From positions 8,305 through 72,304 of the forward strand of contig CAMZDE010000001.1 of assembly GCA_947305255.1 (NCBI GenBank): a stretch of 64,000 nucleotides of DNA, in the 5' to 3' direction. The stretch is from an uncultured Alphaproteobacteria bacterium. GTDB lineage: Bacteria > Pseudomonadota > Alphaproteobacteria > Rs-D84. Shown here piece after piece: positions 7,301 through 55,589 of this stretch. The notes beneath the pieces are model-generated. The model had not been told where the DNA came from and ran no database searches. It saw only the letters and a program-made list of their open reading frames with translations. The position numbers were made by a program, and so were the translations under genes. Every line of letters starts with the position of its first letter. Position 1 is the first letter of the stretch.

Positions 7301-7813
7301 TTAATTGCCGCTTGTTGGGATAGTGACAGCTTCACCATCACGGCCGAACCAAATCTGCAACTTGGAATTATCATTAGTTCCGGCCACACATTTAGCCTGA
7401 CCACCATTGGCCCATGTTCTGCCTTGCAACCCAGCACAAGTTGTCGCATCACCAGTTTCAAAGGAAATAGTAAATCTATCGCCCGCAGTAGATTCTGTTG
7501 CAGAGGCAACTTCATATACAGAACCGCCGTATGGCGCTTTCACTTGATCGAAGCCCAAAACTTTCAACACATTTGCAGAAGTAACACCGCTGAAGTTATC
7601 AGTGTTGTTGTACAACAAACGGATACCAGCCGCCAAAGCAGCGATATCGTCGTCAGCACGGCTCAATTTTTGGGAACGCATAGCAGATGTAATCAATACA
7701 AACGCCGCAGCAGTGATTAAACCCATAACCGCCAACACACCAACCATTTCAATCATAGAACGGCCGGATTCGTGTTTTTTAGTTACTCTTCTTGTTTGTT
7801 TTTTTTGTTTCAT
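7301..7813 (-). CDS. prepilin-type N-terminal cleavage/methylation domain protein (type IV pilin-like), paralog 1
   Basis: ESGRSMIEMVGVLAVMGLITAAAFVL has Gly, then Glu at +5, then a hydrophobic helix. C-terminal Cys pair. Confidence 0.7.
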   Translation of the reverse strand: MKQKKQTRRVTKKHESGRSMIEMVGVLAVMGLITAAAFVLITSAMRSQKLSRADDDIAALAAGIRLLYNNTDNFSGVTSANVLKVLGFDQVKAPYGGSVYEVASATESTAGDRFTISFETGDATTCAGLQGRTWANGGQAKCVAGTNDNSKLQIWFGRDGEAVTIPTSGN

Positions 7814-7897
7814 TTTTTTCTCCTGTTGTTTTCACATGGCACCTTTATTGTATCATAAAATACAAAACCTGTCAAACCGAAATTCGGTTTTTTTTCA

Positions 7898-8458
7898 TTA
7901 AATCAAATTTTCTGTCTTTTTGTAAAAAATTCCAAAACTATCTTCGATGCGGTTCAACCCAGTATTTGGATTTATCGCCACCGCAACGCCGATATTTTGT
8001 TGTGATTTAACGAATTGAGAATTTGCAAAAGTTTGCCCACATCCCGCACCAACCGAACCGCGGAAAAAGTTATCATTCAATTTTTTGCAATATCTTGAAT
8101 CCAGATTAGCAATATAAATACTGAACACATCCGGATAATCTGGGTCATACACAACACTATAATAACTGCCTTTGCCAAAAGGTGTTGTTGTTGCGACACG
8201 TAATTTTTCTAAGAAATTTTTTCCTGCTTCGATATTTGTAATACCGTCCAACGTTGAAAAATCTCTATATTTCAAAGACAAAGCCCGCACAGTTAATGCG
8301 ATATCCGCGACATCATCTTGGGTTTGTTTTATTTTTTTATTTGTTTGGATTATCGACACTATCCACAACACAAATGCCGCCACAGCACCAACAATAGCCA
8401 AGATAATCGCAGCTTCTAACATTGCAATCCCAGATTCACGATTATTTTGTTTTTTCAT
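7898..8458 (-). CDS. prepilin-type protein, divergent paralog 2 (possible minor pilin)
   Basis: ESGIAMLEAAIILAIVGAVAAFVLWIV has Gly then Glu at +5. C-terminal region unrelated to the neighbours. Contains a Cys pair. Confidence 0.6.
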   Translation of the reverse strand: MKKQNNRESGIAMLEAAIILAIVGAVAAFVLWIVSIIQTNKKIKQTQDDVADIALTVRALSLKYRDFSTLDGITNIEAGKNFLEKLRVATTTPFGKGSYYSVVYDPDYPDVFSIYIANLDSRYCKKLNDNFFRGSVGAGCGQTFANSQFVKSQQNIGVAVAINPNTGLNRIEDSFGIFYKKTENLI

Positions 8459-8486
8459 ATATTCCCCCCATTAAAAAAATAAATTT

Positions 8487-8978
8487 TTATTTAGAGTATG
8501 TAATTTTCAGCACTTTTTTATTACTGATTGTTGAACAAGTTGCGGTTCCGTCAGAATATGTCCGCACGGCCATTGCTTCGCATTCTTCGGCTTCAATTCC
8601 AATCAACCATACAATAAGTTTTCCTCTAGCTGTACTTACCGCGTAATACGAATCATCCCCCAAAGGTGTCGCCCCGTCAGTTTTTAACAACATTCTTGCC
8701 AGATCATACGCTGTCACATAATCATTGGCCACCTTTTTTTCGGGCACCGAACTATCGTCAAACCAGCGCAAAACGCTGTATCCCCCCTGTGCCGCAGTAA
8801 GCGCACTAACACCTTGAACCAATGTACTTATTTCATCGGCGGCGCGATTGCGTTTTTGCGACGCCATACCACTCTTAACCAAAACAAAAGCGCCCGCGGT
8901 CAACAATCCTGCAACAGCCAACACCCCAACCATTTCTATCATCGAACGACCGGATTGACGATTATTGTGTTTTTTCAT
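8487..8978 (-). CDS. type IV pilin-like protein, paralog 3
   Basis: QSGRSMIEMVGVLAVAGLLTAGAFVLVKSGMASQKRNRAADEISTL N-terminus. C-terminal ECEAMAVRTYSDGTATC disulfide loop. Confidence 0.75.
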   Translation of the reverse strand: MKKHNNRQSGRSMIEMVGVLAVAGLLTAGAFVLVKSGMASQKRNRAADEISTLVQGVSALTAAQGGYSVLRWFDDSSVPEKKVANDYVTAYDLARMLLKTDGATPLGDDSYYAVSTARGKLIVWLIGIEAEECEAMAVRTYSDGTATCSTISNKKVLKITYSK

Positions 8979-9006
8979 ACATTCCCCCGTATAAAAACAT
9001 TACTTT

Positions 9007-9519
9007 TTATTTAGAATATGTAATTTTCAGAACTTTTTTGTTACTGATTGTTGAACACGTTGCGGTTCCATCAGAATATGTCCGCACCGCCATTGCTTCG
9101 CATTCTTCGGATTCAATCCCCACCAACCAGATAGCAAAACCATTGCCTTCCCCGCTTATTGCGTAATACGACCCATCCCCCAAAGGCGTCGTTGCTTCGG
9201 TCTTTAACAATACTCTTGCCATTTCATACGGCGTCATATAGTCAGATTCTCCACCGACGGTCTTTGTCGGCACCCCACTATTACTTATCCACGGCAAGAA
9301 ACCAAAATATCCGGTTGTCGCAAGATGTGCCGCAGCAAACGAACGCACTCCTTGGGCCAATGTACTTATTTCATCGGCGGCGCGATTGCGTTTTTGCGAT
9401 GCCATACCACTTTTAACCAAAACAAAAGCACCCGCGGTCAACAACCCTGCAACAGCCAACACGCCGACCATTTCTATCATTGAACGACCAGATTCCTGCT
9501 TCCTTAAAAATTTAAACAT
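9007..9519 (-). CDS. type IV pilin-like protein, paralog 4 (mosaic with paralog 3)
   Basis: N-terminal 44 aa and C-terminal 32 aa are identical to paralog 3. The central region differs. Confidence 0.75.
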   Translation of the reverse strand: MFKFLRKQESGRSMIEMVGVLAVAGLLTAGAFVLVKSGMASQKRNRAADEISTLAQGVRSFAAAHLATTGYFGFLPWISNSGVPTKTVGGESDYMTPYEMARVLLKTEATTPLGDGSYYAISGEGNGFAIWLVGIESEECEAMAVRTYSDGTATCSTISNKKVLKITYSK

Positions 9520-9542
9520 ATCGTATTCCCTTTGTTAAAAAA

Positions 9543-10064
9543 TTATTTACCAAAATAGAACCACGCGGTCCCTTGAACACAGGATGCATCCGCGGCGACA
9601 CCGTGCCACGCCTCTAATGCCAACAATTTGCAATCTTCTTCGTCCAGATTCGCCAATCCCACCCTGAAATAAACAGATGTGCCATCATTTTGCACCCCGA
9701 AATATTCATACCAACTGGCATTATGTGTTGCATCGGATTGCGTAATAACGTAATATGTATCTTCACCCATAGGTGTCACACCATTTGTTTTCAACAAAGC
9801 CTTTGCCATATTATGACCACCTTTGCCACGACCTATTTCGTTTGCCCCCGGCAAAGTAGTAAATTTGCTGCCTTCGGCGGTCAAAGTACGCACAGATTGA
9901 GCCAACGTATTCATTTCATCCATTGCACGACGGCGTTTTTGTGATGACATACCACTTTGAATCAAAACGAACGCGCCCGCGGTCAACAAGCCCGCAACAG
10001 CCAACACGCCGACCATTTCAATCATCGAACGGCCCGCTTCTACTTTTTTATTACAACGTTTCAT
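9543..10064 (-). CDS. type IV pilin-like protein, paralog 5
   Basis: EAGRSMIEMVGVLAVAGLLTAGAFVLIQSGMSSQKRRRA N-terminus. C-terminal CKLLALEAWHGVAADASC loop. Confidence 0.75.
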   Translation of the reverse strand: MKRCNKKVEAGRSMIEMVGVLAVAGLLTAGAFVLIQSGMSSQKRRRAMDEMNTLAQSVRTLTAEGSKFTTLPGANEIGRGKGGHNMAKALLKTNGVTPMGEDTYYVITQSDATHNASWYEYFGVQNDGTSVYFRVGLANLDEEDCKLLALEAWHGVAADASCVQGTAWFYFGK

Positions 10065-10083
10065 TCTTATACCTCTTGTTTAA

Positions 10084-10557
10084 TTATTTTCCAAAATACA
10101 CGGATAAATTTCCACCGTCACATGATGTATCTTGGGCATCGGCCCACGTCTGAACCGACAACAAATAGCAATCTTCAGATTCCAGATTAATCATACCAAT
10201 TCTGAATCTATCTAAGGTGTCACCTTGGGTAACCACGTAATACGTATTATCACCAAAAGGTGTTGTTCCATTCGTTTTCAATAACGCTCGGGCTAATTTA
10301 GGCCCCTGCCCATTTGTAGCTATCGCACTAAGCGACGGCAAATTACCAAAATTTTCAGCCTCTGCAGTCAACATACGAACAGATTGAGCCAGTGTATTAA
10401 TTTCATCAGTGGCGCGACGACGTTTTTGCGATGACATTCCGCTTCGAATTAAAACGAACGCCCCCGCAGTCAACAATCCAGTAATTGCCAACACGCCGAC
10501 CATCTCTATCATTGAACGTCCTGATTGACTATTTGAATATCCTTTTTTCCATAACAT
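10084..10557 (-). CDS. type IV pilin-like protein, paralog 6
   Basis: QSGRSMIEMVGVLAITGLLTAGAFVLIRSGMSSQKRRRA N-terminus. C-terminal CYLLSVQTWADAQDTSC loop. Confidence 0.75.
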   Translation of the reverse strand: MLWKKGYSNSQSGRSMIEMVGVLAITGLLTAGAFVLIRSGMSSQKRRRATDEINTLAQSVRMLTAEAENFGNLPSLSAIATNGQGPKLARALLKTNGTTPFGDNTYYVVTQGDTLDRFRIGMINLESEDCYLLSVQTWADAQDTSCDGGNLSVYFGK

Positions 10558-10581
10558 TTTTTACCTTTTCTATCCTTTATT

Positions 10582-11052
10582 TTACATACCAAATCTCAAA
10601 TATACCGCCCCATCACTATTACATGACGCACCCCATACTTCAGGCCATGTCTGGGTCGCCAAAACCATGCAATCATCGTCATCTAAACCGCGAATAAACA
10701 ATTCGAAATAATCCTTTTCACCAACGCCCTTGATACTATATTTCGTATCCGGCCCAAAAGGTGTTGTCGTATTCAAATATAGTCCATCTATCAACTTTGT
10801 TCCTTCGGCTTCATCAGTTGGCAAATCTGCAAATCCATCAGGATATAAACCACGAATATTTTCAACAATCGCCATAACTTCATCAAACGTGCGCGCACGT
10901 TTTTGGGATGTTGCGCCACTACGCACCAAGACCATGGCCCCCGCAGTAATCAAACTCATTACCGCCAACACGCCGATAATTTCGACCATTGAACGTCCTG
11001 AATCCTCATATTTATATTGTTTGTTTGACATTATTTTTCTCTTACCTTTCAA
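10582..11052 (-). CDS. type IV pilin-like protein, paralog 7
   Basis: DSGRSMVEIIGVLAVMSLITAGAMVLVRSGATSQKRAR N-terminus. C-terminal CMVLATQTWPEVWGASC loop. Confidence 0.7.
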   Translation of the reverse strand: MKGKRKIMSNKQYKYEDSGRSMVEIIGVLAVMSLITAGAMVLVRSGATSQKRARTFDEVMAIVENIRGLYPDGFADLPTDEAEGTKLIDGLYLNTTTPFGPDTKYSIKGVGEKDYFELFIRGLDDDDCMVLATQTWPEVWGASCNSDGAVYLRFGM

Positions 11053-11060
11053 TATTTTTC

Positions 11061-11519
11061 TTATTTGGTATATGCAACGTTCACAAAACCAGTACCATTA
11101 CAATTATATTTTACAGAATTTTTAACCGCCCCAGGCCAAGATTTTTTGGCCAACACGATACAATCACGATCTGGCACATGAGTAATACTGACACGGAAAG
11201 TCTGAAAACTTTCATCTGTTTTGTCCACGGTCACCGCATATTTAGACCCTGAATACGGCCCATTATCATCAATTGCCATTGCCGCCAACACATCGTCACC
11301 ACTGGTCCAATCTTTCAAATTATCGTAATCTGCGAATAATGTACGAACACCCGTTACTATCTTAGAAAAATCGTCCATAACAGTATTGCGCCGTTGGGTT
11401 GCCATCGCACTACGTATCATAACAAACGCACCCGCAGACATTATCGTCATTATCGCCAATACGCCGATGATTTCCAACATTGACCGACCAGACTCTGCCT
11501 TTCTTGTGATTTTATACAT
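11061..11519 (-). CDS. type IV pilin-like protein, paralog 8 (first gene of the array)
   Basis: ESGRSMLEIIGVLAIMTIMSAGAFVMIRSAMATQRRN N-terminus. C-terminal CIVLAKKSW...KYNC. ATG at 11519 with AGAGGG RBS. Confidence 0.7.
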   Translation of the reverse strand: MYKITRKAESGRSMLEIIGVLAIMTIMSAGAFVMIRSAMATQRRNTVMDDFSKIVTGVRTLFADYDNLKDWTSGDDVLAAMAIDDNGPYSGSKYAVTVDKTDESFQTFRVSITHVPDRDCIVLAKKSWPGAVKNSVKYNCNGTGFVNVAYTK

Positions 11520-11567
11520 CAATGCAACCCTCTTGATTTTTATGAATTATATTTTATCATAAAATTC

Positions 11568-15834: not shown

Positions 15835-16968
15835 ATGAATAAGAATCCTTATGAAGTCCTTGGGGTCTCGCGCGACGCGTCAGACACCGATATCAAAAAG
15901 GCCTATCATAAATTGGTTATGAAATATCACCCTGATAAAAACCCAGGGGACAAAGCGGCCGAAGAAAAGTTTAAGGAAGTTAACAATGCATTTGATATAT
16001 TAAAAGACCCGCAAAAACGCGCGGCATATGACCGATTCGGTGACGCGGCATTTGCCGGCGGCAACGGGGCCAGCGCAGGCGGCGGCTTTAACGGCAATCC
16101 ATTTGGCAACGGCGCATTTCATTTCAATATGGGTGGCGGCGACATGGGCGGAATGGAAGATATTTTACGCGAAGCCATGCGTGGTTTTGGATTTGGTGGC
16201 GGGTTTGGCGACGGCGCGCGCGGGAATCAACAACAACGCGGCCGCGATTTATTGGACGAAGTCGTCATCGATTTAAAAGATGCTTTTTTCGGCACAACAC
16301 ATACTGTAAAATTCACCAGTGCGGTAAAATGCGAAAAATGTAATGGCAACGGCACGGCCGACGGCAAACCTGCCCCAACATGTAAGACATGCGGTGGCAC
16401 AGGATACGTCCACGCACGTCAGGGATTTTTCGCGGTCGAAACACCATGCCCTGATTGTCATGGATTGGGCAAACAGATCGATAAAAAATGCAGTGCCTGT
16501 GACGGCACCGGCACGGTTAATAAACAGCGCACATTGGATGTAAAAATTCCCGCCGGTATTATGGACGGCGCGCGCCTGCGTATGGCCGGCATGGGCGAAG
16601 CGGCCCCGAACGGTGGCCCCGCAGGCGATTTCTATATCGATGTCCATATCCGTCCAAATAAAACATTTGAACGCATCGGTAACGATTTGTTAATGCGACG
16701 CGATATTGATTTTGCAACCCTGACTTTGGGTGGCGAAATAGAAATTGAAACAATCGACGATAAAAAATTGTCAGTAAAAATCCCATCGGGAACTCAGGTT
16801 GGTGAAAAATTGCGTGTCCGCGGACATGGTATGCCAACGGGCCGCGGTGGCTTTGGCGATTTATACATTGAAATCGGAATTGTCATACCCAAAAAATTAA
16901 CCGAAAAACAAAAGAAGGCATTGGCCGAATTCGCCGGCATAAAGAGCGATAAAAAAGGTTGGTTTTAA
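15835..16968 (+). CDS. dnaJ: molecular chaperone DnaJ
   Basis: J-domain with HPD ([10 protein letters not shown]). Gly/Phe-rich linker. Four CxxCxGxG zinc-finger repeats. C-terminal substrate-binding domain. Confidence 0.9.
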
Positions 16969-16998
16969 CACCAACCTTTTTTTAATCCGAATACAATA

Positions 16999-17517
16999 TT
17001 AAAAACCATTCGTCAAAGAGACACTGGTTATATCATCACTGTCCCAAGTTGTATAAACAGCAACCTGTTGCGCAGCGATATAATCTTTCACAGCTTTTAC
17101 AGCCCCACTCAACCCATCTCCCGCAACAAGAAACCGCGAAAGAAGATTAGTCTGCAAATTATCGTTTAAAAATACTTCTCTGACTATATCGTCACCTGCC
17201 ACTGACCCAAGTGCCATATTTTCCATTGCTCTACCTGTTTCGTCATTAATAATCTTTCCCTGTTTATCACTGTCCAATTTATTCACCGCCGCAATTGCGT
17301 CATTGTATGCACCCTTGACATACGCAGTGGTGGCGATATGCGTTTCGTCGGCCGCCGTTGGTGTGATTGTCACATATGGTGCCGGTGCAGTTGCAACAAC
17401 CGCCGTTCCATTTGCCGGCACCGCGGACGGCCCGACCGGCGTCACAGGGTCTGCATTTGCAGCAAACGTCGACGACGCAATCATTGTTAATGTTAATAAT
17501 AGCTGTTTCGTTGTCAT
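16999..17517 (-). CDS. secreted protein of unknown function, HIATTAYVKGAYN/YTTWDDD family, copy A
   Basis: Start MTTKQLLLTLTMIASSTFAANA (signal peptide) with GGAGAG RBS. Shares the conserved core TADETHIATTAYVKGAYNDAIAAVNK and C-terminal YTTWDSDD with the ORFs at 22355-22846 and 52007-52540. Confidence 0.6.
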   Translation of the reverse strand: MTTKQLLLTLTMIASSTFAANADPVTPVGPSAVPANGTAVVATAPAPYVTITPTAADETHIATTAYVKGAYNDAIAAVNKLDSDKQGKIINDETGRAMENMALGSVAGDDIVREVFLNDNLQTNLLSRFLVAGDGLSGAVKAVKDYIAAQQVAVYTTWDSDDITSVSLTNGF

Positions 17518-17723
17518 TGTTTCTCTCCTTTTGTTCGTTTTAACAACAAACAACCACCCGATTAAATGGGTGGTTGGAGGTTCAAGACAATTGTAGTTTA
17601 AATTGTGCCGTTTATTTTACCATATGGTATTATTCACGGGCCCTCCAACCATAAATTAAGGTTGGAGTTTTTACGTCTCTCCTGACGAACTTACATCGGG
17701 CCTTGATACCCCATCGGAAAAAC
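17518..17723 (-). promoter_or_regulatory. conserved structured 5' leader, copy 1, with terminator/antiterminator alternative pairing (candidate riboswitch or attenuator)
   Basis: Read on the minus strand. 5' hairpin UCGGAAAGGG..CCGA. Central stem with conserved GAAUAA and ACAAUUU/AAAUUGU hairpin. CUCCAACC/GGUUGGAG, GGUUGGAGG/CCUCCAACC and CAACCACCC/GGGUGGUUG+UUUGUUGUU pairings are mutually exclusive. Two more copies with compensatory substitutions are at 22847-23107 and 52541-52745. Confidence 0.5.
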
Positions 17724-17729
17724 CCTTTC

Positions 17730-17738
17730 CGACGTAAA
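17730..17738 (-). promoter_or_regulatory. putative extended -10 promoter element TGATAAAAT for the leader and copy A
   Basis: Minus-strand TGATAAAAT lies about 7 nt upstream of the conserved GUCGG leader start. The same nonamer is at the same position in the other two copies (23114-23122, 52752-52760). Confidence 0.35.
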
Positions 17739-17770
17739 TATTTTATCATTTTTCAAAAACTAAAACAAGG

Positions 17771-17800
17771 ACAAAAAAAGTACCGCCCAAACGGGCGGTT
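17771..17800 (-). terminator. intrinsic terminator of dnaA
   Basis: ACCGCCCAAACGGGCGGT hairpin followed on the minus strand by TTTTTTTGTCC. Confidence 0.6.
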
Positions 17801-17805
17801 ATGTT

Positions 17806-19083
17806 TTATTTGCAAACTTTAATTAAATCGGCGATTTCTGCATTCAATATTAAATCCGACGCCTTTTGATTTTCAATTTGTGACAATGCATACACAACCG
17901 TTGCATGATCGCGGCCGCCGCATACGTTGCCAATTTCGGTCAACGATAAATTTGTAACAGATTTTAATACAGCCATCATTATCTGACGCGCACGAACCAA
18001 ACGACGTGTGCGGGAATTACCACAAATTTCATCATATGAAACACACATTTTTTCACACATAGATTTTACCATCATCGTTGGTGTTTTATTTTTATTCAAC
18101 ACATCACCCAACAAACGCGCGGCAACATCCATATCTACGGTTTCACCCATCAATTCAGTATATGTTTTAATTTTGCTGATGATGCCATTCACCAAATGAC
18201 CATCGCCACCAATTTGTTTTGATAATTCATCTGCAACCGTTCCATCAACACCGGCACGATTTAACATAGCGCGACGAACATATGCGTTCGGTGCAACAAC
18301 ATCAACCACCAAACCCGACGCGAACAGCGATTGCATACGTCTATCGAACCCAGTCAACGCGTTCGGTGCAGCGTTCGCAGTCAACACAACCGATTTTCCA
18401 TTTGCGCGCAAATCAGTCAACAACTGTAAAAATTCGTCCATTGTCGCACGTTTGCCGGCCAACGCACAAACATCGTCCAAAATGAACATATCGCAATTGC
18501 GGCAATAATCTTTGAATGAAAATATAGTTTTATCACGCAATGCACGTGCAAAATCAGAAACAAATTGTCCACCCGACATCATAACAACACGTTTGTTTGA
18601 TGTCGCACAAATGCAATTCGCTAACAATGTTTTACCACAACCCGCCGGCCCAGCGATAAACAGTTGTGAAAATGATGCCCCACCAACAGCAATCTTTTTG
18701 CATGCGGCCACCGCGAACATATTATCATCACAGGCAACAAAATCATCAAACGCATTACGTTTTGCCTGAACAATATTTTTTGTTTCTGGGGCGTATGCAC
18801 AAACAACATTATCATTTGCAGAATTCAAATTCACATGTGCCGCCACAGCGATATTTAATTCCAAAGAAAAATCCGCCGCAATGTCTTGGATGATTTTTCC
18901 ATAATTTCTTTTGACATGGTCGGCGGAAAATTGATTGTGCGCAATTAAATTCAAACGATTATCAACAATTTCAAATTGCAGCGGCATAACCCAGGCAGCA
19001 AACCCCGCAGAATCTATCTGTGACGCAATCGCCATTTTGATTGATTCTACATTTACGTTCTGTTTTGTTATTGCTAACTGCAT
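17806..19083 (-). CDS. dnaA: chromosomal replication initiator protein DnaA (compact, 425 aa)
   Basis: AAA+ Walker A GPAGCGKT. Domain IV signature RTRRLVRARQIMMAVLK...IGNVCGGRDHATVVYA. Confidence 0.85.
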   Translation of the reverse strand: MQLAITKQNVNVESIKMAIASQIDSAGFAAWVMPLQFEIVDNRLNLIAHNQFSADHVKRNYGKIIQDIAADFSLELNIAVAAHVNLNSANDNVVCAYAPETKNIVQAKRNAFDDFVACDDNMFAVAACKKIAVGGASFSQLFIAGPAGCGKTLLANCICATSNKRVVMMSGGQFVSDFARALRDKTIFSFKDYCRNCDMFILDDVCALAGKRATMDEFLQLLTDLRANGKSVVLTANAAPNALTGFDRRMQSLFASGLVVDVVAPNAYVRRAMLNRAGVDGTVADELSKQIGGDGHLVNGIISKIKTYTELMGETVDMDVAARLLGDVLNKNKTPTMMVKSMCEKMCVSYDEICGNSRTRRLVRARQIMMAVLKSVTNLSLTEIGNVCGGRDHATVVYALSQIENQKASDLILNAEIADLIKVCK

Positions 19084-22354: not shown

Positions 22355-22846
22355 TTAATCTTCGGGTAACACTGTTTCCAATGGAATATTAACCGAATCC
22401 CTGTCATCATCCCACGTCGTATAGATTTTAACCCGTTGACTTTTGATACCGGCCTGCACAGCAGCGCCAGATACTAAGTTTCTATCGGTCAATTCAAAAT
22501 CCTCTTCCCCAGCGAGAATATTTACAAAATAAGTACCGCCGTATACCTCATTGTCGACAAAAACAAACTCATCTCCATCAACAAAAAGTAGATCTTGTTT
22601 CTGATTCAATCCAGCAATCGTGTCATTATATGCGCCCTTGACATATGCGGTTGTGGCGATATGTTCCGCATCAGCGTTTGTTATGGTTGCGGTTGTATAA
22701 GGTCCGTTATAACTAGCCATTGTCACAGTTCCATTTTGTGGCACAAGTGCTGGACTACTTACATAGTTATACGTGTAATCAGCCATTGACACGCACGGCA
22801 ATGCGGCAATTATTGCTAATGTTAATAGCGGTTTCATTGTTCTCAT
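22355..22846 (-). CDS. secreted protein of unknown function, HIATTAYVKGAYN/YTTWDDD family, copy B
   Basis: Signal peptide MRTMKPLLTLAIIAALPCVSMA. Core DAEHIATTAYVKGAYNDTIAGLNQ. C-terminal IYTTWDDDRDS. Confidence 0.6.
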   Translation of the reverse strand: MRTMKPLLTLAIIAALPCVSMADYTYNYVSSPALVPQNGTVTMASYNGPYTTATITNADAEHIATTAYVKGAYNDTIAGLNQKQDLLFVDGDEFVFVDNEVYGGTYFVNILAGEEDFELTDRNLVSGAAVQAGIKSQRVKIYTTWDDDRDSVNIPLETVLPED

Positions 22847-23107
22847 AGTCTTTTCTCCTTTATTCTTTATTTATCCGATTGTGTGGGGAATCACCCCGCC
22901 GCAAGCGCCCCCCCGTGGAGGGGAATTAACAAAAGAACAACCACCCCATAAGTAAAGGTGGTTGGAGGTTAGCTACAATTTAAGTCGAAATTGTGTGCCT
23001 TATTCAATTTATTCGGCAACCCTCCAACCATATGTTGGAGATTTTAACGTCATCTCTGGCGCGACTTAATCGGGCAGCTACACCCCATCGCAAAAACTCT
23101 CTGCGAC
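22847..23107 (-). promoter_or_regulatory. conserved structured 5' leader, copy 2 (contains an extra ~50 bp GC-rich insertion at 22881-22930)
   Basis: Same architecture as copy 1. Terminator stem CAACCACC/GGUGGUUG. 5' hairpin UCGCAGAGAG..UGCGA with compensatory GC/CG changes. Extended -10 TGATAAAAT at 23114-23122. Confidence 0.5.
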
Positions 23108-23142
23108 GATGATATTTTATCATTTTTCAAAAATTAAAACAA

Positions 23143-23176
23143 GGACAAAAAAGCAACCGCCCAATCGGGCGGTTGT
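23143..23176 (-). terminator. intrinsic terminator of the secretin gene
   Basis: CAACCGCCCAATCGGGCGGTTG hairpin followed on the minus strand by TTTTTTGTCC. Confidence 0.6.
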
Positions 23177-23195: not shown

Positions 23196-24824
23196 TTAAT
23201 CCAATGGCGCACCCCAATGTTGTTGGATATTGCGTTCCGCGTCCATCGGGCTGACCAAAACCTGAGGCGTCAAGATAACAACCAAAACTTCACGCGACGC
23301 CTTGGTATCACGCGACCCAGACAACGCCATAAAGTCCGCATCACCCAAACCATAACGTGTATCATTATTGCTCTGCTTTTCAAACCCAGACACAACCAAC
23401 ATCTGGCCAGATTCCATAATGACTTCCTGCATGAACGAACGTTCTTCTACTTCTGGCAATTGTAATGTGAAGCCGTCGTCCCCACCAATAACCTGGGTAT
23501 CCATCTTTAACAATTCACGCACAGACATTTTGAACAACAACAATATTTTGCCGTTTTCTAAAACATTCGGCAACAATTGCATTGAAAATCCAGTTTCTAA
23601 TTCGTCTTGGTCAACCGTACTGGATTCAACCGTCGTGAAATTACGAGATTCCAAACGTTTGATGTATCCTGTGGTCTTGGTATTTGTCACAGGCGCAACA
23701 CGATTATTACGTGTCGTCACACCAACATTTGTCACCAATGAAACCTTGCCCTGCTTTGCCAAAGCCTGAATCAAAGCATTCGACCCCGCCAAACGTGCCA
23801 TAGAACCGTTACGAATCTGGTCTTCGGAATAATATGTTCCTGCGATTCCACCTTCTGCACCAATGCTGGTCACTTCGGCTGCTTTATTAGACAACACCGC
23901 GACATTCATCGTGCTGGCACCTGTTATAGTTGGCGTACTGGGGGTGGCAACGATATTCAAGCCCGACGCAGAATTTACCGCCGCCGCCAAATTCAACCCA
24001 AAAGCAGATTCATTAGACAACGAAACCTGTAACACTTTGACATCTATCGTCACCAATTGCGACAAGCGTTTATTTTGTCTTTCGATATAACTCGCTACAC
24101 GGGTCAATATAGATGGCGCCGCCGTCACAGTGATTGTTCCCAAACTACGTGACACAGTAAATTGTGCGTTTCTTGCACCATTTATAATAGATGTAATCGT
24201 TTGTTCGATTTCGTCCCATTCATTTAATGACGAACGCAATGCGATATTACTGCCGTCATCTGACGATACAGATGAATTATATTCAACATCTGTCCCCAAC
24301 GCATATAAAGTATATGTACGCGTTTCTGTTTCATAGAAAACGATTGATCCGTTTTCATAATACCATAACAAATCTAAATCTGTCGCAATTTGAGACAACA
24401 ACCCAGACAATTTACCGGTATATGCAACGTCCACAGTTCTCTTTAATTTTTCAGCATCAACCTGACTATCTATTTTTACCGGAATCCCAGTAATAGAATT
24501 TATGTCATTTGCCAAAACCTGTAACGTCACAGGCGTATTTAATAAAATAGTCACCCCTGTATCTGTTTCATATTTTGATGGCAAATTGTTTTTATGTTCC
24601 AAAAGTGTTGATTTATTACCCAACCAAACACCTTCTGACATAGATACAGTATCATTACTGGCGACATTTGCCGTTGGGTGTTTTGATTTTTCGAACGCTT
24701 CATACGCATTCACAAAACTCTGGTCCACAGCCGCAGACACCTTGGCCGATTCATGCAACGTACACCCCGCCACAGTCATCATGGCCATCAATCCCACAAA
24801 ACAAACATATAAACGATTTGTCAT
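23196..24824 (-). CDS. secretin-family outer membrane lipoprotein (type IVb pilus BfpB/TcpC-like, or CpaC/PilQ-like)
   Basis: Lipobox MMTVAGCTL. C-terminal secretin domain (VVSGFEKQ...LVVILTPQV). Beta-rich N-domains. 542 aa. Confidence 0.7.
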   Translation of the reverse strand: MTNRLYVCFVGLMAMMTVAGCTLHESAKVSAAVDQSFVNAYEAFEKSKHPTANVASNDTVSMSEGVWLGNKSTLLEHKNNLPSKYETDTGVTILLNTPVTLQVLANDINSITGIPVKIDSQVDAEKLKRTVDVAYTGKLSGLLSQIATDLDLLWYYENGSIVFYETETRTYTLYALGTDVEYNSSVSSDDGSNIALRSSLNEWDEIEQTITSIINGARNAQFTVSRSLGTITVTAAPSILTRVASYIERQNKRLSQLVTIDVKVLQVSLSNESAFGLNLAAAVNSASGLNIVATPSTPTITGASTMNVAVLSNKAAEVTSIGAEGGIAGTYYSEDQIRNGSMARLAGSNALIQALAKQGKVSLVTNVGVTTRNNRVAPVTNTKTTGYIKRLESRNFTTVESSTVDQDELETGFSMQLLPNVLENGKILLLFKMSVRELLKMDTQVIGGDDGFTLQLPEVEERSFMQEVIMESGQMLVVSGFEKQSNNDTRYGLGDADFMALSGSRDTKASREVLVVILTPQVLVSPMDAERNIQQHWGAPLD

Positions 24825-24857
24825 ATTTTATCTCCTACGACTCTTGTCCCAAAAAAT

Positions 24858-25799
24858 TTATTCTATGGTCGATATGACCAAAACCCGATTTCCTTTGTAA
24901 AATTTCGCATACGGTGCAGGCATCGCACGTTCAAAATTACGAACCAGCGCAGACGCAACATCTACAAAACGCCCCTTAAATACAGCACTGGCCTCTATCG
25001 GATATTCACGTGGTGTTGTCCAAACCAAATCCCAACCTTCTTTGTCACACCAATTTCTTAAAACTTCCTGCAAAGTCTGGCCCGACGCAACAACCCATGA
25101 ACGAACTTCGTTTTCAACGAACGCAGGCGCAGCATCATCAACATCTTCGTTCACGTTAATGATAACATTTGCACCGTCTTTAACAACGCTATCTTGGGCC
25201 GGCTTTTCAGCAACAAAACCCGCGCGTTCCGCAAACGCGATATAAGAATCAGGCCGTTTATTGCAAATTCTGCGCGGGCTGCGTGACATAGACAAAACAG
25301 TTCCGCCATCATCTTCCATCATTTCACGTTGCAACAATGGCATTTCAGCATCATTCACACATTCATAATCAAACCCAGCTGGAATTTGTTGGCCATTATA
25401 AATATTCGCCCCCCCAGACCAGCCAGTTCCAATCGCAGAACCCGCCATGTTTATGTTATTTTCAATAACCAAACCCGAACCAATTTTTGAAACAATCTTT
25501 AATTCACCATCGGGACATTCACCACTATCACACGCGATTTTGAAATCCGCATCGGTCCCAGCAATCGGCCAAATCGGCACAGGCTGTTGTTCAACATACG
25601 TCACATTTGTTGGTTCGTAATAATTCGCGTTTTCATAACGTTGTTCAACGACGGTTTCTTCACGAACGGTGTTATCTTGTTCTTGCTGGTCGTAATCATA
25701 GAACACCTCTGACGTAACAACCTGTTGTGGCAAATCCGCCCCAAAGGCAACGCCAGACACCAAAACCGCCAAAAATGCGAAATAAAATCTATGTAACAT
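24858..25799 (-). CDS. TcpQ-like secretin-associated periplasmic protein (putative)
   Basis: Signal peptide MLHRFYFAFLAVLVSGVAFGA. C-terminal SGQTLQEVLRNWCDKEGWDLVW...YPI resembles the TcpQ/PilL C-terminal domain. It lies directly upstream of the secretin. ATG at 25799 with AAAGGAAAG RBS. Confidence 0.45.
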   Translation of the reverse strand: MLHRFYFAFLAVLVSGVAFGADLPQQVVTSEVFYDYDQQEQDNTVREETVVEQRYENANYYEPTNVTYVEQQPVPIWPIAGTDADFKIACDSGECPDGELKIVSKIGSGLVIENNINMAGSAIGTGWSGGANIYNGQQIPAGFDYECVNDAEMPLLQREMMEDDGGTVLSMSRSPRRICNKRPDSYIAFAERAGFVAEKPAQDSVVKDGANVIINVNEDVDDAAPAFVENEVRSWVVASGQTLQEVLRNWCDKEGWDLVWTTPREYPIEASAVFKGRFVDVASALVRNFERAMPAPYAKFYKGNRVLVISTIE

Positions 25800-25977
25800 A
25801 TTCTTTCCTTTCATCTATTATTATTCAATTATATCAATTTGACCGAATCAGTGCAAGACATAAAACACACATTTTTAATAAAAAAATAAAATTAAAAAAA
25901 CATGCAAGATAAAATCGCACGAATCGATAAAACATGTTATACTAAAACCCGAAAGAATACAAAAAACAGGTAAAAAC

Positions 25978-51974: not shown

Positions 51975-52010
51975 AAAAAAAGCACCGCCAAATCGGCGGT
52001 GTTTTTTTAT
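51975..52010. terminator. bidirectional intrinsic terminator between dksA and copy C
   Basis: CACCGCCAAATCGGCGGTG hairpin with an A-run before it and a T-run after it. Confidence 0.6.
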
Positions 52011-52540
52011 TGTCCAGATGCAGTGACCAATGGCACCTCTGCCACATCGTCATCATCCCACGTGGTATAAATTTCCACACGTTTGTTTGATATCGTGTTA
52101 TTAATATCACTTTTTGCTTGGTTTACCAACCACACAGTACCGCCCAAAGACACCAAAAGGCGTTCTTGATCTCCATCCAAAAACCAATCCAACCCCTCCG
52201 CTTCCAATCCATCACCATCAACCACTTCTGAGATAATATACTCGGAATCCCCATTAACCAATATACCTTGATAACCAGTTAGTCGTGCATCCACTTTATT
52301 CACCGCTGCAATTGCACTGTTATATGCACCTTTGACATAGGCGGTGGTGGCGATATGTTCTTGGTCGGCGGTGTCTATATCAATACGCCCAAACGGTGCG
52401 CCCGCTTGTGTTGTTGGTGCGGGGTGATTCGTATTCTCATGCGCTGGTGCGGTGTACATCGCACCCGAGATATTTTCAGCCATTGCAGTAAATGGTAACG
52501 CCGCGATTATGGCCATTGTTAATATTGTTTTTGTTTTCAT
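52007..52540 (-). CDS. secreted protein of unknown function, HIATTAYVKGAYN/YTTWDDD family, copy C
   Basis: Signal peptide MKTKTILTMAIIAALPFTAMA. Core DQEHIATTAYVKGAYNSAIAAVNKVD. C-terminal IYTTWDDDDVAEVPL. GGAGAG RBS. Confidence 0.6.
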   Translation of the reverse strand: MKTKTILTMAIIAALPFTAMAENISGAMYTAPAHENTNHPAPTTQAGAPFGRIDIDTADQEHIATTAYVKGAYNSAIAAVNKVDARLTGYQGILVNGDSEYIISEVVDGDGLEAEGLDWFLDGDQERLLVSLGGTVWLVNQAKSDINNTISNKRVEIYTTWDDDDVAEVPLVTASGQ

Positions 52541-52745
52541 CGTTTGCTCTCCTTTGTCTTCGACTTTATGACAAAAACAACCGCCCCTATAAAAGGCGGT
52601 TGGAGGCTAGAAACAATTGTAAGTCAAATTGTGCGCCTTATTCGATTTATTCGGCAGCCCTCCAACCGTATGTTGGAGCAATTTTACGTCGCTCAGACGA
52701 ACTTACATCGGGCTTCTAGACCCCATCGGAAAAACACTTCCCGAC
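52541..52745 (-). promoter_or_regulatory. conserved structured 5' leader, copy 3
   Basis: Terminator stem CAACCGCC/GGCGGUUG+UUUUUGU. CUCCAAC/GUUGGAG and GGUUGGAGG/CCUCCAACC alternative pairings. 5' hairpin UCGGGAAGUG..CCGA. Extended -10 TGATAAAAT at 52752-52760. Confidence 0.5.
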
Positions 52746-52850
52746 AAGGTTATTTTATCAAAAATCGTTTTATGGTGCAAATATAAATTTCAATATACGA
52801 AAAACATTTCACCAAATATGGCGTCACAAAAAAACAAAATATTTGAAAAA

Positions 52851-55505
52851 TTAATTAGTCTGCAAAAAACTCGACAAATCAAAAGATGGACTACTCAGGT
52901 TGCCGTCCAACCCTGACAAACCTGTATTGTCGCCCGTATTATAATACCCATTGAACAAAGACGTTACATTCGACAAACCGTCCCCTAAACTAAACCCAGA
53001 CAAATCACCTAAATCAATCCCCAGATTTGATGCATAACTTTTATCTCGTGCTTCTGCATCACGGAATTGTTGTTGCACATCGGAAATAGATTCACTTAAT
53101 TTCTTAATAATCGCATATTCAGTATTCCCAGATGCGCCAACCATTTTTGCGATTGTCACGTTGCTGAATCCGGCTGCAACCAAAGCATTGTAAATATCTG
53201 TTGCATTCGTTGAATCAGCAAACATTCCAATCACAGATTGATTATTTAACGCCGTCAAATCACGCTTACAATTTATACGGTTAACCGAAAAAACAGACGG
53301 ATAAAAATTCGTAAATGTCAAATTGTCTGTATCTGTCACACCCGCAGATTTTAAACATTGTTTTAATTTATCTAATGCGCTGGCTTCTGTCCCTAATAAC
53401 TTGCGCGTTTCTGTACCGGCCGTTCCGTCATCAACCGCAGATTTCAATTTTTTACCCAAATTACCGTTTATCAAAGAATTGGCAACGACACCACCAACAA
53501 TACCAACGCCCGCAGCCGTCGAACCATATTTCAAACGTTTATCCGATTTTTCTGCATCTTTATCAATCTTGGTTTGGTCGTCTTCACTGCCCAACATTTT
53601 TGCACGATAAAGCGAAGCGTACGAACCGCTGGTCACACCAACGTTTTCATCATCATATAATCCCATATCCGCCTTGTCTAAAATTTCTTCGCTTTCAATT
53701 CCAGGTGCCATTCCTAATGATTCTTTTCTTTCTTTCAAACTTTGAGCCAAAGACATATATTCGCTCTTTAACGCGGTCATAGTTTCACCATCGCCCGCCG
53801 GCAATTCAATTTCATCTGCGCCTGCCTTAACCGATTTTCCATTACCGTACGAACAGCGCATTGTTGCAATATATGCATTCATATCAGATTCTGCATCTGC
53901 GTCGGCCTTTTGTTCAGACCAACCTTGGAACGCTTCCATCATTCCCACGCCGGTCGCCGCGGTCGTCAACGCCGTTGCGGTTCGATTTGCCAAAGATTGT
54001 TCTTCTGCTTTGGCATCGGTATAGGCGTCACGTTTTTCTTGTAATTGTTGTGCCTCAAATGCCGCATCTTTGATACATTGTCCATTTTCATAGATATAAC
54101 CTTCTTGGACACATTGGCATATTCCGTCTTGCCATACGGCAACAGATTTACCCAATTTTTTGCAAACATCTTCGTCGCTCTGTGTATATGCAGCGACCAA
54201 CATACAATTTCCATCATCATCCGCATAATCGCATTCGCAACTCAATCCATCAGAACTAAGGTGTGCATATGATACATTACATTCGCATCCACTTGAATCT
54301 GCTTTAAGTGTTGCGCCACCTGTGCAATCCAGCGCAATTGTTCCAGATATAGTAATCCCGCCTTTTGTTGTTGGTTCATTACACGCCGTCAAAACCCCGT
54401 CGGTTTGAACGGGCTCAAACCCAGAATTGCATACACATTTTGTTTGTGTGTCATCTAAAACTGCATTATTCAAACCACATACACACGCCGTATTTTCAGC
54501 ATTCGGCACCGCACCATCCGTGCAATTCAAATCAATAACTTCCGCCGATGCGGGCAACACACAAGTATCCCCGTTCCATTCATATCCCGATTTTTGACAC
54601 ACACATCTAGTACCATTCCATGTCGCATCCTCAATTGGTAAATTACAGCATGCCAACCGTTGCGCCGCCATAGTTTCATCTGGATAATCAGCATTCACAC
54701 TGTTTGGGTATTTCGAATAATAAGTACACGCGGTCAAACATTTCTTTGTTGCATCATCCCATTTTTGGTTTTTTGGACATTTGCCTGTCACAACCCCAGA
54801 ATTTGAACTTTTTTTCTTTTGAATAACCTCTTCTTTTCCTTTGGCACCAACGGTCTCATCAGGCACCGTCCCGGCAGATACCCCACCGCCACCACCGCCA
54901 GAGTCGCCGCTGCCTCCACCCCCAGATGCCTTTGGATCACGTGCACCGGTCCAACATACATCTTGGCAATATTTTGCACCGTTGGCATCATAAACCTGAT
55001 ATTTGCAATAAAAATATGTTCCATCTTGTGTTGATGCAATTTTATGATATTTGCTGATATCGTTCGGACATTCGCCAACATTTTTTGAATTAGCCTTTTC
55101 CCAATAATGATTCATACTGCTTCCACCACATCTATATAACCCCAGTTGGTTACTGGCGGTATAATCGGCCAATTTTGAAATATAATGCGGCCCCAACACA
55201 GCAACATTTGTATATAATTCACAACCATCAACTTTTTCATGGCCACACGACAAGGCCTGACTTGAATTTTTTCCACCTAAAAACAGATAGCGATTATTGT
55301 CATGTACACTGCGTTTGAATGCACTCCATGTTAAATTTTTATTGCCCGCCGCATCATATGTGTATGACGCTTCATCTTGGATAGTTTGCGCCTTGCAATT
55401 ATAAGTGGCCGCCTGTAACGCCGTCCCCGCAAAAACGCACGACAAAAACAGCACAAAAAAAGTTATTTTCTTTACTATCTCTCTCATAATTAAATATTTT
55501 ATCAT
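52851..55505 (-). CDS. large secreted Cys-rich repeat protein (EGF-like CxC modules, Gly-rich linker, C-terminal coiled-coil/Gly-Ser-Asp-rich tail)
   Basis: Signal peptide MIKYLIMREIVKKITFFVLFLSCVFAGTALQA. More than 40 Cys in spaced CxC...G(Y/F)E patterns. GGGGSGDSGGGGGG linker. ATG at 55505 with GGTGG RBS. Confidence 0.55.
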   Translation of the reverse strand: MIKYLIMREIVKKITFFVLFLSCVFAGTALQAATYNCKAQTIQDEASYTYDAAGNKNLTWSAFKRSVHDNNRYLFLGGKNSSQALSCGHEKVDGCELYTNVAVLGPHYISKLADYTASNQLGLYRCGGSSMNHYWEKANSKNVGECPNDISKYHKIASTQDGTYFYCKYQVYDANGAKYCQDVCWTGARDPKASGGGGSGDSGGGGGGVSAGTVPDETVGAKGKEEVIQKKKSSNSGVVTGKCPKNQKWDDATKKCLTACTYYSKYPNSVNADYPDETMAAQRLACCNLPIEDATWNGTRCVCQKSGYEWNGDTCVLPASAEVIDLNCTDGAVPNAENTACVCGLNNAVLDDTQTKCVCNSGFEPVQTDGVLTACNEPTTKGGITISGTIALDCTGGATLKADSSGCECNVSYAHLSSDGLSCECDYADDDGNCMLVAAYTQSDEDVCKKLGKSVAVWQDGICQCVQEGYIYENGQCIKDAAFEAQQLQEKRDAYTDAKAEEQSLANRTATALTTAATGVGMMEAFQGWSEQKADADAESDMNAYIATMRCSYGNGKSVKAGADEIELPAGDGETMTALKSEYMSLAQSLKERKESLGMAPGIESEEILDKADMGLYDDENVGVTSGSYASLYRAKMLGSEDDQTKIDKDAEKSDKRLKYGSTAAGVGIVGGVVANSLINGNLGKKLKSAVDDGTAGTETRKLLGTEASALDKLKQCLKSAGVTDTDNLTFTNFYPSVFSVNRINCKRDLTALNNQSVIGMFADSTNATDIYNALVAAGFSNVTIAKMVGASGNTEYAIIKKLSESISDVQQQFRDAEARDKSYASNLGIDLGDLSGFSLGDGLSNVTSLFNGYYNTGDNTGLSGLDGNLSSPSFDLSSFLQTN

Positions 55506-55589
55506 AAAACCACCAACGAACCAAGACAAAAAACATCGGTCAATGCATAAAAAACATCGACCGATATAGATAAAATCATCATATAAAAA

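Follow-up and report, generated by a model that had tools for sequence, protein, structure and literature searches.

A strain-variable family of putatively exported small proteins in uncultured Rs-D84 Alphaproteobacteria and its predicted two-state leader RNA, a candidate relative of sRNA-Xcc1

Three genes for small proteins of one kind lie at distant sites in a 64,000-nucleotide (nt) stretch of DNA (hereafter, the window) from an uncultured alphaproteobacterium of the order Rs-D84 (GenBank assembly GCA_947305255.1, contig CAMZDE010000001.1, positions 8,305 to 72,304 of the forward strand). Each is on the minus strand and preceded by a structured leader. The locus raises the questions of what these proteins are and what a leader copied together with each of them may do. 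A first-pass annotation, made from the letters of the window, described the genes (here copies A, B and C) as a three-member family of secreted proteins of no assignable type, under tight regulatory control and possibly acting at the surface or on a host. We find that they belong to a new and unannotated protein family, large yet taxonomically narrow, the centre of which differs between otherwise near-identical strains, and that the leader is a well-supported two-state attenuator-like RNA, the predicted folds of which point to a regulatory function. A family of variable contact proteins, each preceded by a two-state leader, is the best explanation of the data as a whole, and we give it a slightly better than even chance of being correct.

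The open reading frame (ORF) listing of the window included minus-strand ORFs at 16999-17553, 22355-22846 and 52007-52540, where the first-pass annotation had placed them, and protein alignment revealed copies A, B and C to be paralogs with a pairwise identity of 41%. Two stretches are invariant in the alignment of the three copies: a core block, HIATTAYVKGAYN..IA..N (i.e., H-I-A-T-T-A-Y-V-K-G-A-Y-N..I-A..N), and YTTWD.D close to the C terminus. These motifs had been proposed in wider forms, of which the core block and YTTWD stand; copy A (DETH) departs from '[DE]xEH' and copy B (WDDDRD) from 'WDxDD'. A degenerate DNA pattern for HIATTAYVKGAYN matched exactly the three family sites in the window and had zero matches in 100 shuffles. 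For copy A, ATG 17517 (with a ribosome-binding site (RBS), AGGAG, at 17525-17529) is the most likely start, rather than TTG 17553, from which the extension would cross the leader terminator at 17551-17576.

All three copies have the features of predicted signal peptidase I substrates, namely K/R-containing n-regions, hydrophobic cores (10-aa h-region hydropathy maxima of 2.1-2.9) and candidate AxA-type cleavage sites as read from the sequence (ANA/D, SMA/D and AMA/E, the slash marking cleavage). A lipobox was not found in the signal peptides of the three copies, and a lipoprotein reading was set aside, as only copy B has a Cys in this region and its context is not that of a lipobox. The class III signal of type IV pilins (G/xxxxE followed by a hydrophobic N-terminal helix) was likewise absent from the family, the signal peptides of which are ordinary. 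The mature proteins are 141-156 aa in length, acidic (isoelectric points of 4.05-4.25) and cysteine-free.

Database searches agreed with the earlier view that this family with Sec-type signal peptides could not be assigned. Scans of the three window proteins against Pfam, NCBIfam and PHROG returned noise only (best E of 0.11-0.15 for PHROG tail-fibre families), and the family profile had a best E of 0.83 against PDB sequences; thus, no housekeeping periplasmic family was matched in these four collections, a check that the first-pass annotation had named. Foldseek, also proposed there, was run with AlphaFold models of two copies (B and C) and gave nothing significant, whether against PDB (best E of 2.7 and 1.6) or BFVD (best E of 0.28). 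No relatives were detected by a scan of viral contigs or by tblastn of phage genomes.

The count of three proved too low. A fourth paralog, P0029, is recorded on a 96,042-nt contig, as are the three window proteins; it lies outside the window, and tblastn of P0029 against the window found the three known sites only. Thus, even on a local scale the family exceeds three members. When 5.8 billion clustered proteins were searched with a profile, 417 matches were obtained, none named and none with a Pfam domain. By an exhaustive HMMER search of 1.84 billion representatives, 446, 251 and 145 clusters (counted at 50% identity) were found at E<=1e-3, 1e-10 and 1e-30, respectively, so that public data hold at least 446 clusters, all unnamed; the best 150 were all family members of 97-335 aa, and a look-up of clusters gave neither names nor accessions. 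By contrast to this size, the taxonomic range is narrow: 185,579 species-representative genomes contained only three loci, one in a Candidatus Enterousia sp. metagenome-assembled genome (MAG) and two in rumen MAGs labelled 'uncultured proteobacterium', and metagenome contigs supplied 59 family loci. Its members come from uncultured Alphaproteobacteria of the gut and rumen, relatives of Ca. Enterousia (order Rs-D84). Many copies per genome are suggested by family proteins that share one longest-contig size each (9 at 270,095 nt, 7 at 269,983 nt and 4 at 96,042 nt). Members of the Rs-D84/Enterousia lineage have genomes of <1 Mb and were proposed to be partner-dependent, as obligate symbionts or parasites (PMC12306168).

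The main property of the family is the contrast between its ends and its centre. Each protein consists, in order, of a signal peptide, a tail of ~40 residues rich in Pro, Thr and Ala, the HIATTAYVKGAYN block, a variable centre and a C-terminal beta-hairpin (V.IYTTWD). In an 89-sequence alignment, the fraction of sequences with the majority residue was ~0.6 over the signal peptide and N tail, 0.9 in the core block, 0.22-0.41 in the 70 residues that follow and ~0.7 in the final 20-25. When 177 members were split at the two motifs into N part, middle and C end, the mean effective identity was 51% for N parts compared to 4.7% for middles, which ranged in length from 15 to 228 aa. N parts were 85% identical or more in 126 pairs, and in 106 of these the middles were less than 35% identical; the reverse pattern was seen in three pairs. 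The notion of wholly unrelated central cassettes had to be softened, since for 161 of the 177 middles at least one other member gave a significant match, most often at 35-50% identity. The best partner for a middle was often not the protein whose N part matched best. Thus, the centre is best described as a fast-evolving homologous domain with a mosaic history, as middles match relatives in a manner incongruent with the N parts.

Positional orthologs in other strains gave the same picture at all three loci. Copy C and its syntenic counterpart (locus L004) have flanking genes 97-100% identical and gene ends 96-99% identical, with a centre of 41-53%. Copy A and the gene after dnaA in another strain (L067) have flanks at 97-99%, the N part at 95%, the centre at 55% and the C part at 47%. 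For copy B and its counterpart after the secretin gene (L068), the values are 99-100% for the flanks, 91% for the N part, 51% for the centre and 87% for the C part. Since these positional orthologs differ in the centre, all three loci are local replacement hotspots in otherwise near-identical genomes. In this respect the family resembles flagellins and Anaplasma Msp2/P44, with constant N and C parts, a central region replaced between near-identical strains, many paralogs, and similarities of middle and end that are mosaic and incongruent. It differs from these proteins in having no sequence or fold relation to them, a far smaller size (~150 aa) and a Sec signal peptide. It is also not an expression-site/silent-cassette system, because each copy has a promoter of its own and is complete as a gene.

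AlphaFold2 models of copies C and B were generated as monomers from alignments of 89-92 sequences. The mean predicted local distance difference test (pLDDT) scores were 73.8 (copy C) and 70.8 (copy B), and the predicted template modelling (pTM) scores were 0.40 and 0.45, respectively. In these models the N tail has a pLDDT of <50 over residues 20-48, and a helix begins at the core block; the tail is thus conserved and probably flexible. The C-terminal 60-100 residues were modelled at pLDDT 80-92 and comprise, besides short strands and three helices, a terminal beta-hairpin with the YTTWD motif. The central region is predicted to be mostly helical.

Each window gene is an autonomous cassette, with a sigma-70 extended -10 promoter, a leader of ~190-260 nt, an RBS, the coding sequence (CDS) and a terminator of its own. 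The extended -10 element TGATAAAAT is conserved in 28 leaders. The earlier proposal that each copy was duplicated with its own promoter-leader module is supported by the sequence, and the upstream terminator said to be common to copies A and B was found in a 63-nt segment (17738-17800 and 23112-23174, 92% identical) that contains the hairpin ACCGCCC....GGGCGGT, a T-run and the promoter. The region upstream of copy C differs from this segment; a -35 TTGCAT and an A/T-rich upstream stretch are conserved across loci. Within the window, the structured leader is found upstream of these three genes only. In homologs elsewhere the leader is frequent and not universal. In the DNA examined, strong matches to an nhmmer profile of this leader (class I) were confined to the strand of family genes and to the position directly before them, at 32 of the 62 such genes for which the available upstream sequence was 260 nt or longer. 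Comparison of the remaining upstream regions revealed leaders of a second class at 12 further loci; these class II leaders have another sequence and the same architecture (seg2 GGUCGGGGAG, seg3 CUCCCCGACC and terminator GACCACC/GGUGGUC, the segments being as described below).

Two mutually exclusive folds were derived for the leader, an OFF fold by use of RNAalifold on 28 class I leaders and an ON fold in which pairing between segments 2 and 3 (seg2:seg3) was forced. The OFF fold contains a 5' hairpin (P1), a seg1:seg2 hairpin, the intrinsic terminator and three long-range helices that join the 5' and 3' parts (GGGG:CCUC, alignment columns 52-58:212-218 and columns 65-72:199-206). Its 44 pairs were paired in 96.7% of cells, and 22 of the 44 had compensatory changes. 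The covariation score of 0.472 compared to 0.201 for shuffled alignments (0 of 500 reached 0.472) and to 0.128 or less for slid controls. In the ON fold, seg2:seg3 forms the closing helix of a three-way junction, and the terminator loses three pairs; the seg2:seg3 helix is 100% paired in the 28 leaders, with compensatory changes at two positions. The terminators were found by a scan between promoter and RBS, and seg3 is common to the terminator and antiterminator folds. Class II leaders provide independent support for the long-range helices (17 of 49 pairs compensatory), and their seg2 and seg3 covary (GGGGAG:CUCCCC versus GGGGUG:CACCCC). The sequences of two long-range helices, LR2 and LR3, differ among copies A, B and C yet are complementary inside each copy.

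Energies calculated for these folds suggest how the leader may operate. For the full-length leader the terminator (OFF) fold was favoured by 7-9 kcal/mol, compared to only 0-1.2 kcal/mol before the fourth segment (seg4) is included, and this modelled balance would be that expected of a co-transcriptional switch. In the proposed OFF state, the long-range helices would hold the 5' part to the 3' part, seg1 would pair with seg2, and seg3:seg4 would form the intrinsic terminator before the RBS. In the ON state, seg2:seg3 pairing would close the three-way junction and remove the base of the terminator. Since the folds are nearly isoenergetic before seg4 is transcribed, an input (a ligand, a protein, an RNA, or temperature or kinetics) could decide read-through. 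The 'tight regulatory control' of the first-pass annotation is a prediction from RNA structure. The design is like that of attenuating riboswitches and of protein- or tRNA-dependent attenuators in its mutually exclusive terminator and antiterminator with one common strand, its structured, sensor-like 5' domain and its position between promoter and RBS. By contrast to those systems, the window leaders have no match to a known family (no riboswitch, T-box, leader or known aptamer class was matched at Rfam thresholds) and no conserved leader peptide. A leader peptide (AUG GGG ... in class I) was considered and rejected; it is unlikely because class II has no AUG at this place, and base pairing explains the conservation.

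Two further features of the leader sequence were observed. Seg2 (GGUUGGAGGG in the three copies) holds a perfect Shine-Dalgarno-like GGAGG, and seg1 and seg3 mimic the anti-Shine-Dalgarno sequence CCUCC. In some leaders a G+C-rich element of ~55 nt, with runs of C and G around GCGCTTGCGGCGGGG-like cores, lies between the leader terminator and the RBS (window 22875-22928; L005 9915-9975; L013, L027, L035, L045, L050, L052 and L060). This element also occurs at other intergenic sites of these A+T-rich genomes and has the appearance of a small dispersed repeat.

The leader is also not confined to this genome, but is a divergent relative of an RNA in Rfam. The three-way junction was matched by the whole model of sRNA-Xcc1 (RF02221), annotated as a small RNA (sRNA) gene of 87 nt, at 36.8 bits for leader A and 36.3 bits for leader C (E of ~5e-5), and a class II leader (L010) scored 44.8 bits, with E of about 1e-5 for the set as a whole. 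The leaders have the 9-bp G-rich outer stem, a first arm with a GAAUA...AAUAA (AAUA-type) internal loop, with or without a small hairpin, a second arm and the 3' CACC. We compared them with seven genuine Xcc1 loci (L069-L075, 65-76 bits) from Aeromonas caviae, a Nitratidesulfovibrio plasmid, Neisseria gonorrhoeae, a Pseudomonas plasmid, phage TL-2011c, an Stx2a phage and a Pasteurella phage. All seven elements lie 20-45 nt upstream of a CDS. At five loci this is an annotated or ORF-listed same-strand CDS ~30-45 nt after the element; the other two loci are unannotated, and the CDS there is by start codon only, as read in the sequence. The genes named after these elements encode an antirepressor and a BRO-family protein, and in Xanthomonas integrons Xcc1 lies upstream of symE (bioRxiv paper).

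The long-range design of the window leaders recurs at the genuine loci. RNAalifold overlooked long-range helices in the seven sequences owing to misalignment. When the 123 nt upstream of each element were compared with the inner 3' segment by a direct complementarity script, the two best Watson-Crick runs were 6-8 nt at seven of seven loci, with sequences different at every locus. The junction 3' of arm 2 is complementary to a segment at about -100, and the arm-2 loop to another that follows 11-15 nt later. Their order and spacing are those of LR2 and LR3 in the window leaders, and a hairpin of the seg3:seg4 type follows the junction at most genuine loci. The window leaders differ in having, in addition, an anti-antiterminator hairpin with seg1 and a clear intrinsic terminator with a U tail, in lacking the CCCGUCAG-loop hairpin of the genuine loci, and in preceding genes for putatively secreted variable proteins rather than antirepressor/Bro or SymE genes. 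The known hosts of sRNA-Xcc1 are Xanthomonas integron cassettes, Stx and other phages, and plasmids. Based on sequence and predicted pairing, we conclude that the window leader is a putative divergent branch of the sRNA-Xcc1 RNA class and that the 87-nt Rfam model would cover only the 3' half of a longer leader. At the genuine loci, the upstream segments and the element are separated by a covarying hairpin, which has the conserved loop CCCGUCAG and a U-run after it, and a -35-like TTGACG is present ~150 nt upstream.

Table 1. Positions of the family genes, their leaders and control elements, and adjoining genes in the window.
Feature	Position	Strand	Details
Copy A CDS	16999-17517	minus	172 aa from ATG 17517; signal peptide ~22 aa
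Copy A promoter	17740-17768	minus	-35 TTGTTT 17763-17768; 17-nt spacer; extended -10 TGATAAAAT 17740-17748; read from sequence
Copy A leader RNA (class I)	17518-17734	minus	P1 hairpin 17713-17733; GGGG 17709-17712
Copy A leader segments		minus	seg1 17661-17667; seg2 17641-17650; three-way junction 17564-17650; seg3 17572-17580
Copy A leader intrinsic terminator	17551-17576	minus	CAACCACCC....GGGTGGTTG and U-rich tail; stem covaries
Copy A own downstream terminator	16951-16980	minus	GGTTGGTG..CCAACC and T6
Terminator hairpin after dnaA	17782-17799	minus	co-duplicated with the module; copy B twin within 23154-23175
dnaA (neighbour of copy A)	17806-19083
Copy B CDS	22355-22846	minus	163 aa
Copy B leader	22847-23108	minus	P1 23087-23107; seg1 23034-23040; seg2 23020-23029; seg3 22960-22968; terminator 22938-22964
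Copy B leader insert	22875-22928	minus	extra G+C-rich; between terminator and RBS
Copy B promoter and upstream terminator	23112-23174	minus	92% identical to 17738-17800
Secretin gene, PF00263 (neighbour of copy B)	23196-24824
Copy C CDS	52007-52540	minus	177 aa
Copy C leader	52541-52746	minus	P1 52725-52745; seg1 52672-52678; seg2 52658-52667; seg3 52598-52606; terminator 52578-52602
Copy C promoter	52752-52781	minus	TTTGCA; 18-nt spacer; TAAAAT with TG
Copy C own downstream terminator	51983-52001	minus
Cys-rich protein gene (neighbour of copy C)	52851-55529		892 aa

On the protein side, we infer that the family comprises extracellular or surface-exposed contact proteins, a reading that has in our judgement an even chance. 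Export, anchoring or oligomerisation would be the task of the constant ends. The exposed part would be the variable middle, the diversity of which would be maintained by selection and by recombination among alleles and paralogs. The surface or host-interaction role suggested by the first-pass annotation is indirectly strengthened by the strain-variable centre, the expansion of the family, a fibre-type relative (described below) and the lifestyle of the lineage, and stays at the level of a proposal. The genes do lie next to dnaA, the secretin gene and the gene for the large Cys-rich protein, as that annotation had it.

Several observations weigh against this combined view of proteins and leader. 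On the protein side, no outer-membrane anchor, lipobox or known secretion-system motif was found in the family proteins; the genes adjoin unrelated housekeeping genes; the window copies have no tail-fibre family match; the structure models are monomeric and only moderate (pLDDT 71-74, pTM 0.40-0.45); and the hypervariability could stem in part from relaxed constraint rather than positive selection. The link to Enterousia is one genome match at 43% identity. On the RNA side, the leader scores of 36-45 bits are below the Rfam gathering threshold of 53 bits, and an 88-nt species that had been mapped experimentally in Xanthomonas was interpreted as a trans-acting sRNA (PMC2996969), which is not readily reconciled with a leader-only role, so a processed or separately transcribed product is possible. 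In addition, the family genes of five loci (L001, L037, L038, L050 and L055) have a short 5' untranslated region (UTR) without a long leader; since some lineages have the short 5' UTR only, the leader is not obligatory for the family. These Enterousia/rumen loci have family genes in tandem pairs (L001 at 456-2607), with a short conserved 5' UTR, ACUUGGCUUAGGGACGGCUAU, and a perfect long hairpin, GGTCTGGACA...TGTCCAGACC, between the genes of a pair.

Among other explanations for the proteins, the one that survives best, and that we still regard as unlikely, is that they assemble as trimers into short fibres or whiskers, on the plan of phage fibritin or tail fibres, in which the N motif would start the fibre, the variable centre would form a rod or knob, and the C-terminal hairpin would be of the foldon type. 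Some relatives have tail-fibre-type repeats. The Enterousia MAG locus (L001) holds tandem family genes, one of which encodes a 369-aa member that keeps HIASTAYVKGAYN and a C-terminal VDVYNAWG on either side of a centre of VTTAKIAD-type repeats, and the central insert (L001:1498-2607) matches tail-fibre PHROGs with E of 9e-19, 9e-14 and 2e-12. Because this member keeps both ends, the two end modules are compatible with fibre-like inserts. At another locus (L002), the small secreted protein that adjoins the family gene has KLTTRGYVDSGL, then a predicted coiled-coil-like stretch and weak fibritin PHROG matches (E of 0.003-0.009). The high confidence predicted for the C-terminal hairpin and the free variation of central length (15-228 aa) also fit a fibre. 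The (I/L)(A/T)TTxYV motif with its helix and the C-terminal Trp beta-hairpin presumably recall fibre starts and the foldon, which we treat as a lead only. By contrast, the family has signal peptides and no phage context; the window copies have no match in PHROG, in phage genomes by tblastn, in viral contigs or in BFVD; and the monomer models are a compact alpha/beta domain, not a long rod. A Foldseek match to an Hsf adhesin domain was not significant (E of 1.8). Trimeric autotransporter adhesins are a poor comparison as well, as a YadA-type C-terminal anchor and Pfam match were absent and the family ends in a short soluble hairpin.

Somewhat more doubtful is the proposal that these proteins are substrates or tip partners of a type IV pilus-like apparatus, similar to TcpF of Vibrio cholerae or CofJ of enterotoxigenic Escherichia coli, exported by Sec, recognised by the conserved flexible N tail and released via a TcpQ-assisted lipoprotein secretin. 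TcpF and CofJ are Sec-dependent proteins exported by a type IVb pilus via a flexible N-terminal segment, and the window proteins are similar in having a Sec signal, in being soluble and in a flexible N segment (as modelled); the tail is conserved yet predicted to be disordered. Immediately upstream of copy B are genes for a TcpQ-domain protein and a secretin, and a tandem array of eight type-IV-pilin-like genes occupies positions 7301-11522 of the window. However, the family has no sequence or fold similarity to known pilus-dependent secreted proteins and is much smaller and multi-copy. There is a separate promoter for copy B, pilus genes are distant from copies A and C and from most relatives, and neither a pilus ATPase gene nor a platform gene turned up in the ORFs that were scanned.

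As for the RNA, the 'leader' might be mainly a trans-acting gene of the sRNA-Xcc1 type that lies upstream by chance and is not a cis attenuator; we consider this improbable. A discrete 88-nt sRNA-Xcc1 was described as trans-acting (PMC2996969; see also Chen et al. 2011, cited by its title), and termination in the leader would release a stable structured RNA. Against this, among the loci examined (class I, the 12 of class II and the seven genuine Xcc1 loci), every occurrence of the element was on the strand of a CDS and immediately ahead of it, and seg3 is shared by the antiterminator and the terminator. Moreover, since LR2 and LR3 are paralog-specific and internally complementary, folding in cis fits better than a common trans target. 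Least probable is that the family consists of ordinary periplasmic proteins (e.g., binding or chaperone-like) with variability due to neutral drift in a small-genome lineage, as the signal peptide without an anchor or secretion motif and the small, acidic, soluble character would allow, given that divergence is restricted to the gene centre while flanks, leader and gene ends are 91-100% identical between strains at three independent loci, that no housekeeping family was matched (Pfam and NCBIfam), and that many paralogs would be costly if the genome is as small as that of the related Rs-D84 lineage (<1 Mb; PMC12306168).

Other genes of the window were recorded alongside the family. The pilin-like array (minus strand) encodes proteins of 153-186 aa with the N terminus ..ESGRSMIEMVGVLAV.. 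(Glu at +5 after Gly), divergent C-terminal parts and no match in Pfam. The lipoprotein-type secretin gene (PF00263) is preceded by that of the TcpQ-domain protein (PF10671), the two spanning 23196-25814 on the minus strand, and the pilin array is 12 kb off. A VirD4/TraG-type coupling protein of type IV secretion (PF02534, PF12696 and PF10412) is encoded at 61222-63480 on the plus strand, with a syntenic gene in L004. Large Cys-rich proteins with repeated Cys motifs and without a significant Pfam match adjoin family genes in two lineages (window 52851-55529; L002 1763-3001). In the window, the 3' end of this gene and the spacer that follows (~52820-53040) are 62-89% identical between strains, and the remainder is 97-100% identical.

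Taken separately, the two components are of known kinds, a variable exported paralog family and a terminator/antiterminator leader. Their joint reading, which we advance tentatively and as the less probable outcome, is that of dozens of separately gated variant contact proteins, with Xcc1 as the 3' half of a ~200-nt cis leader class. By this reading, a bacterium that is probably dependent on a partner and reduced in genome would maintain dozens of variants of an exported contact protein, and each of these would be under the control of a two-state RNA switch of its own. Because the long-range helix sequences are paralog-specific, the variants could be addressed separately, by selective or mutually exclusive expression. 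If this is true, the genes controlled by a ~200-nt cis leader class, in these bacteria as well as in phages, integrons and plasmids, would be those for antirepressors, toxins and surface proteins. The leader ties a predicted two-state fold to sRNA-Xcc1, known since 2010 without a mechanism, and the long-range design shared by phage, plasmid and chromosomal Xcc1 loci leads to a testable hypothesis, that these elements are 5' leaders which control the downstream gene. For Rs-D84/Enterousia, uncultured bacteria thought to live off other cells (PMC12306168), a strain-variable family of putatively exported proteins is an obvious candidate for the interface of cell contact and would be a useful marker of strain-level diversification.

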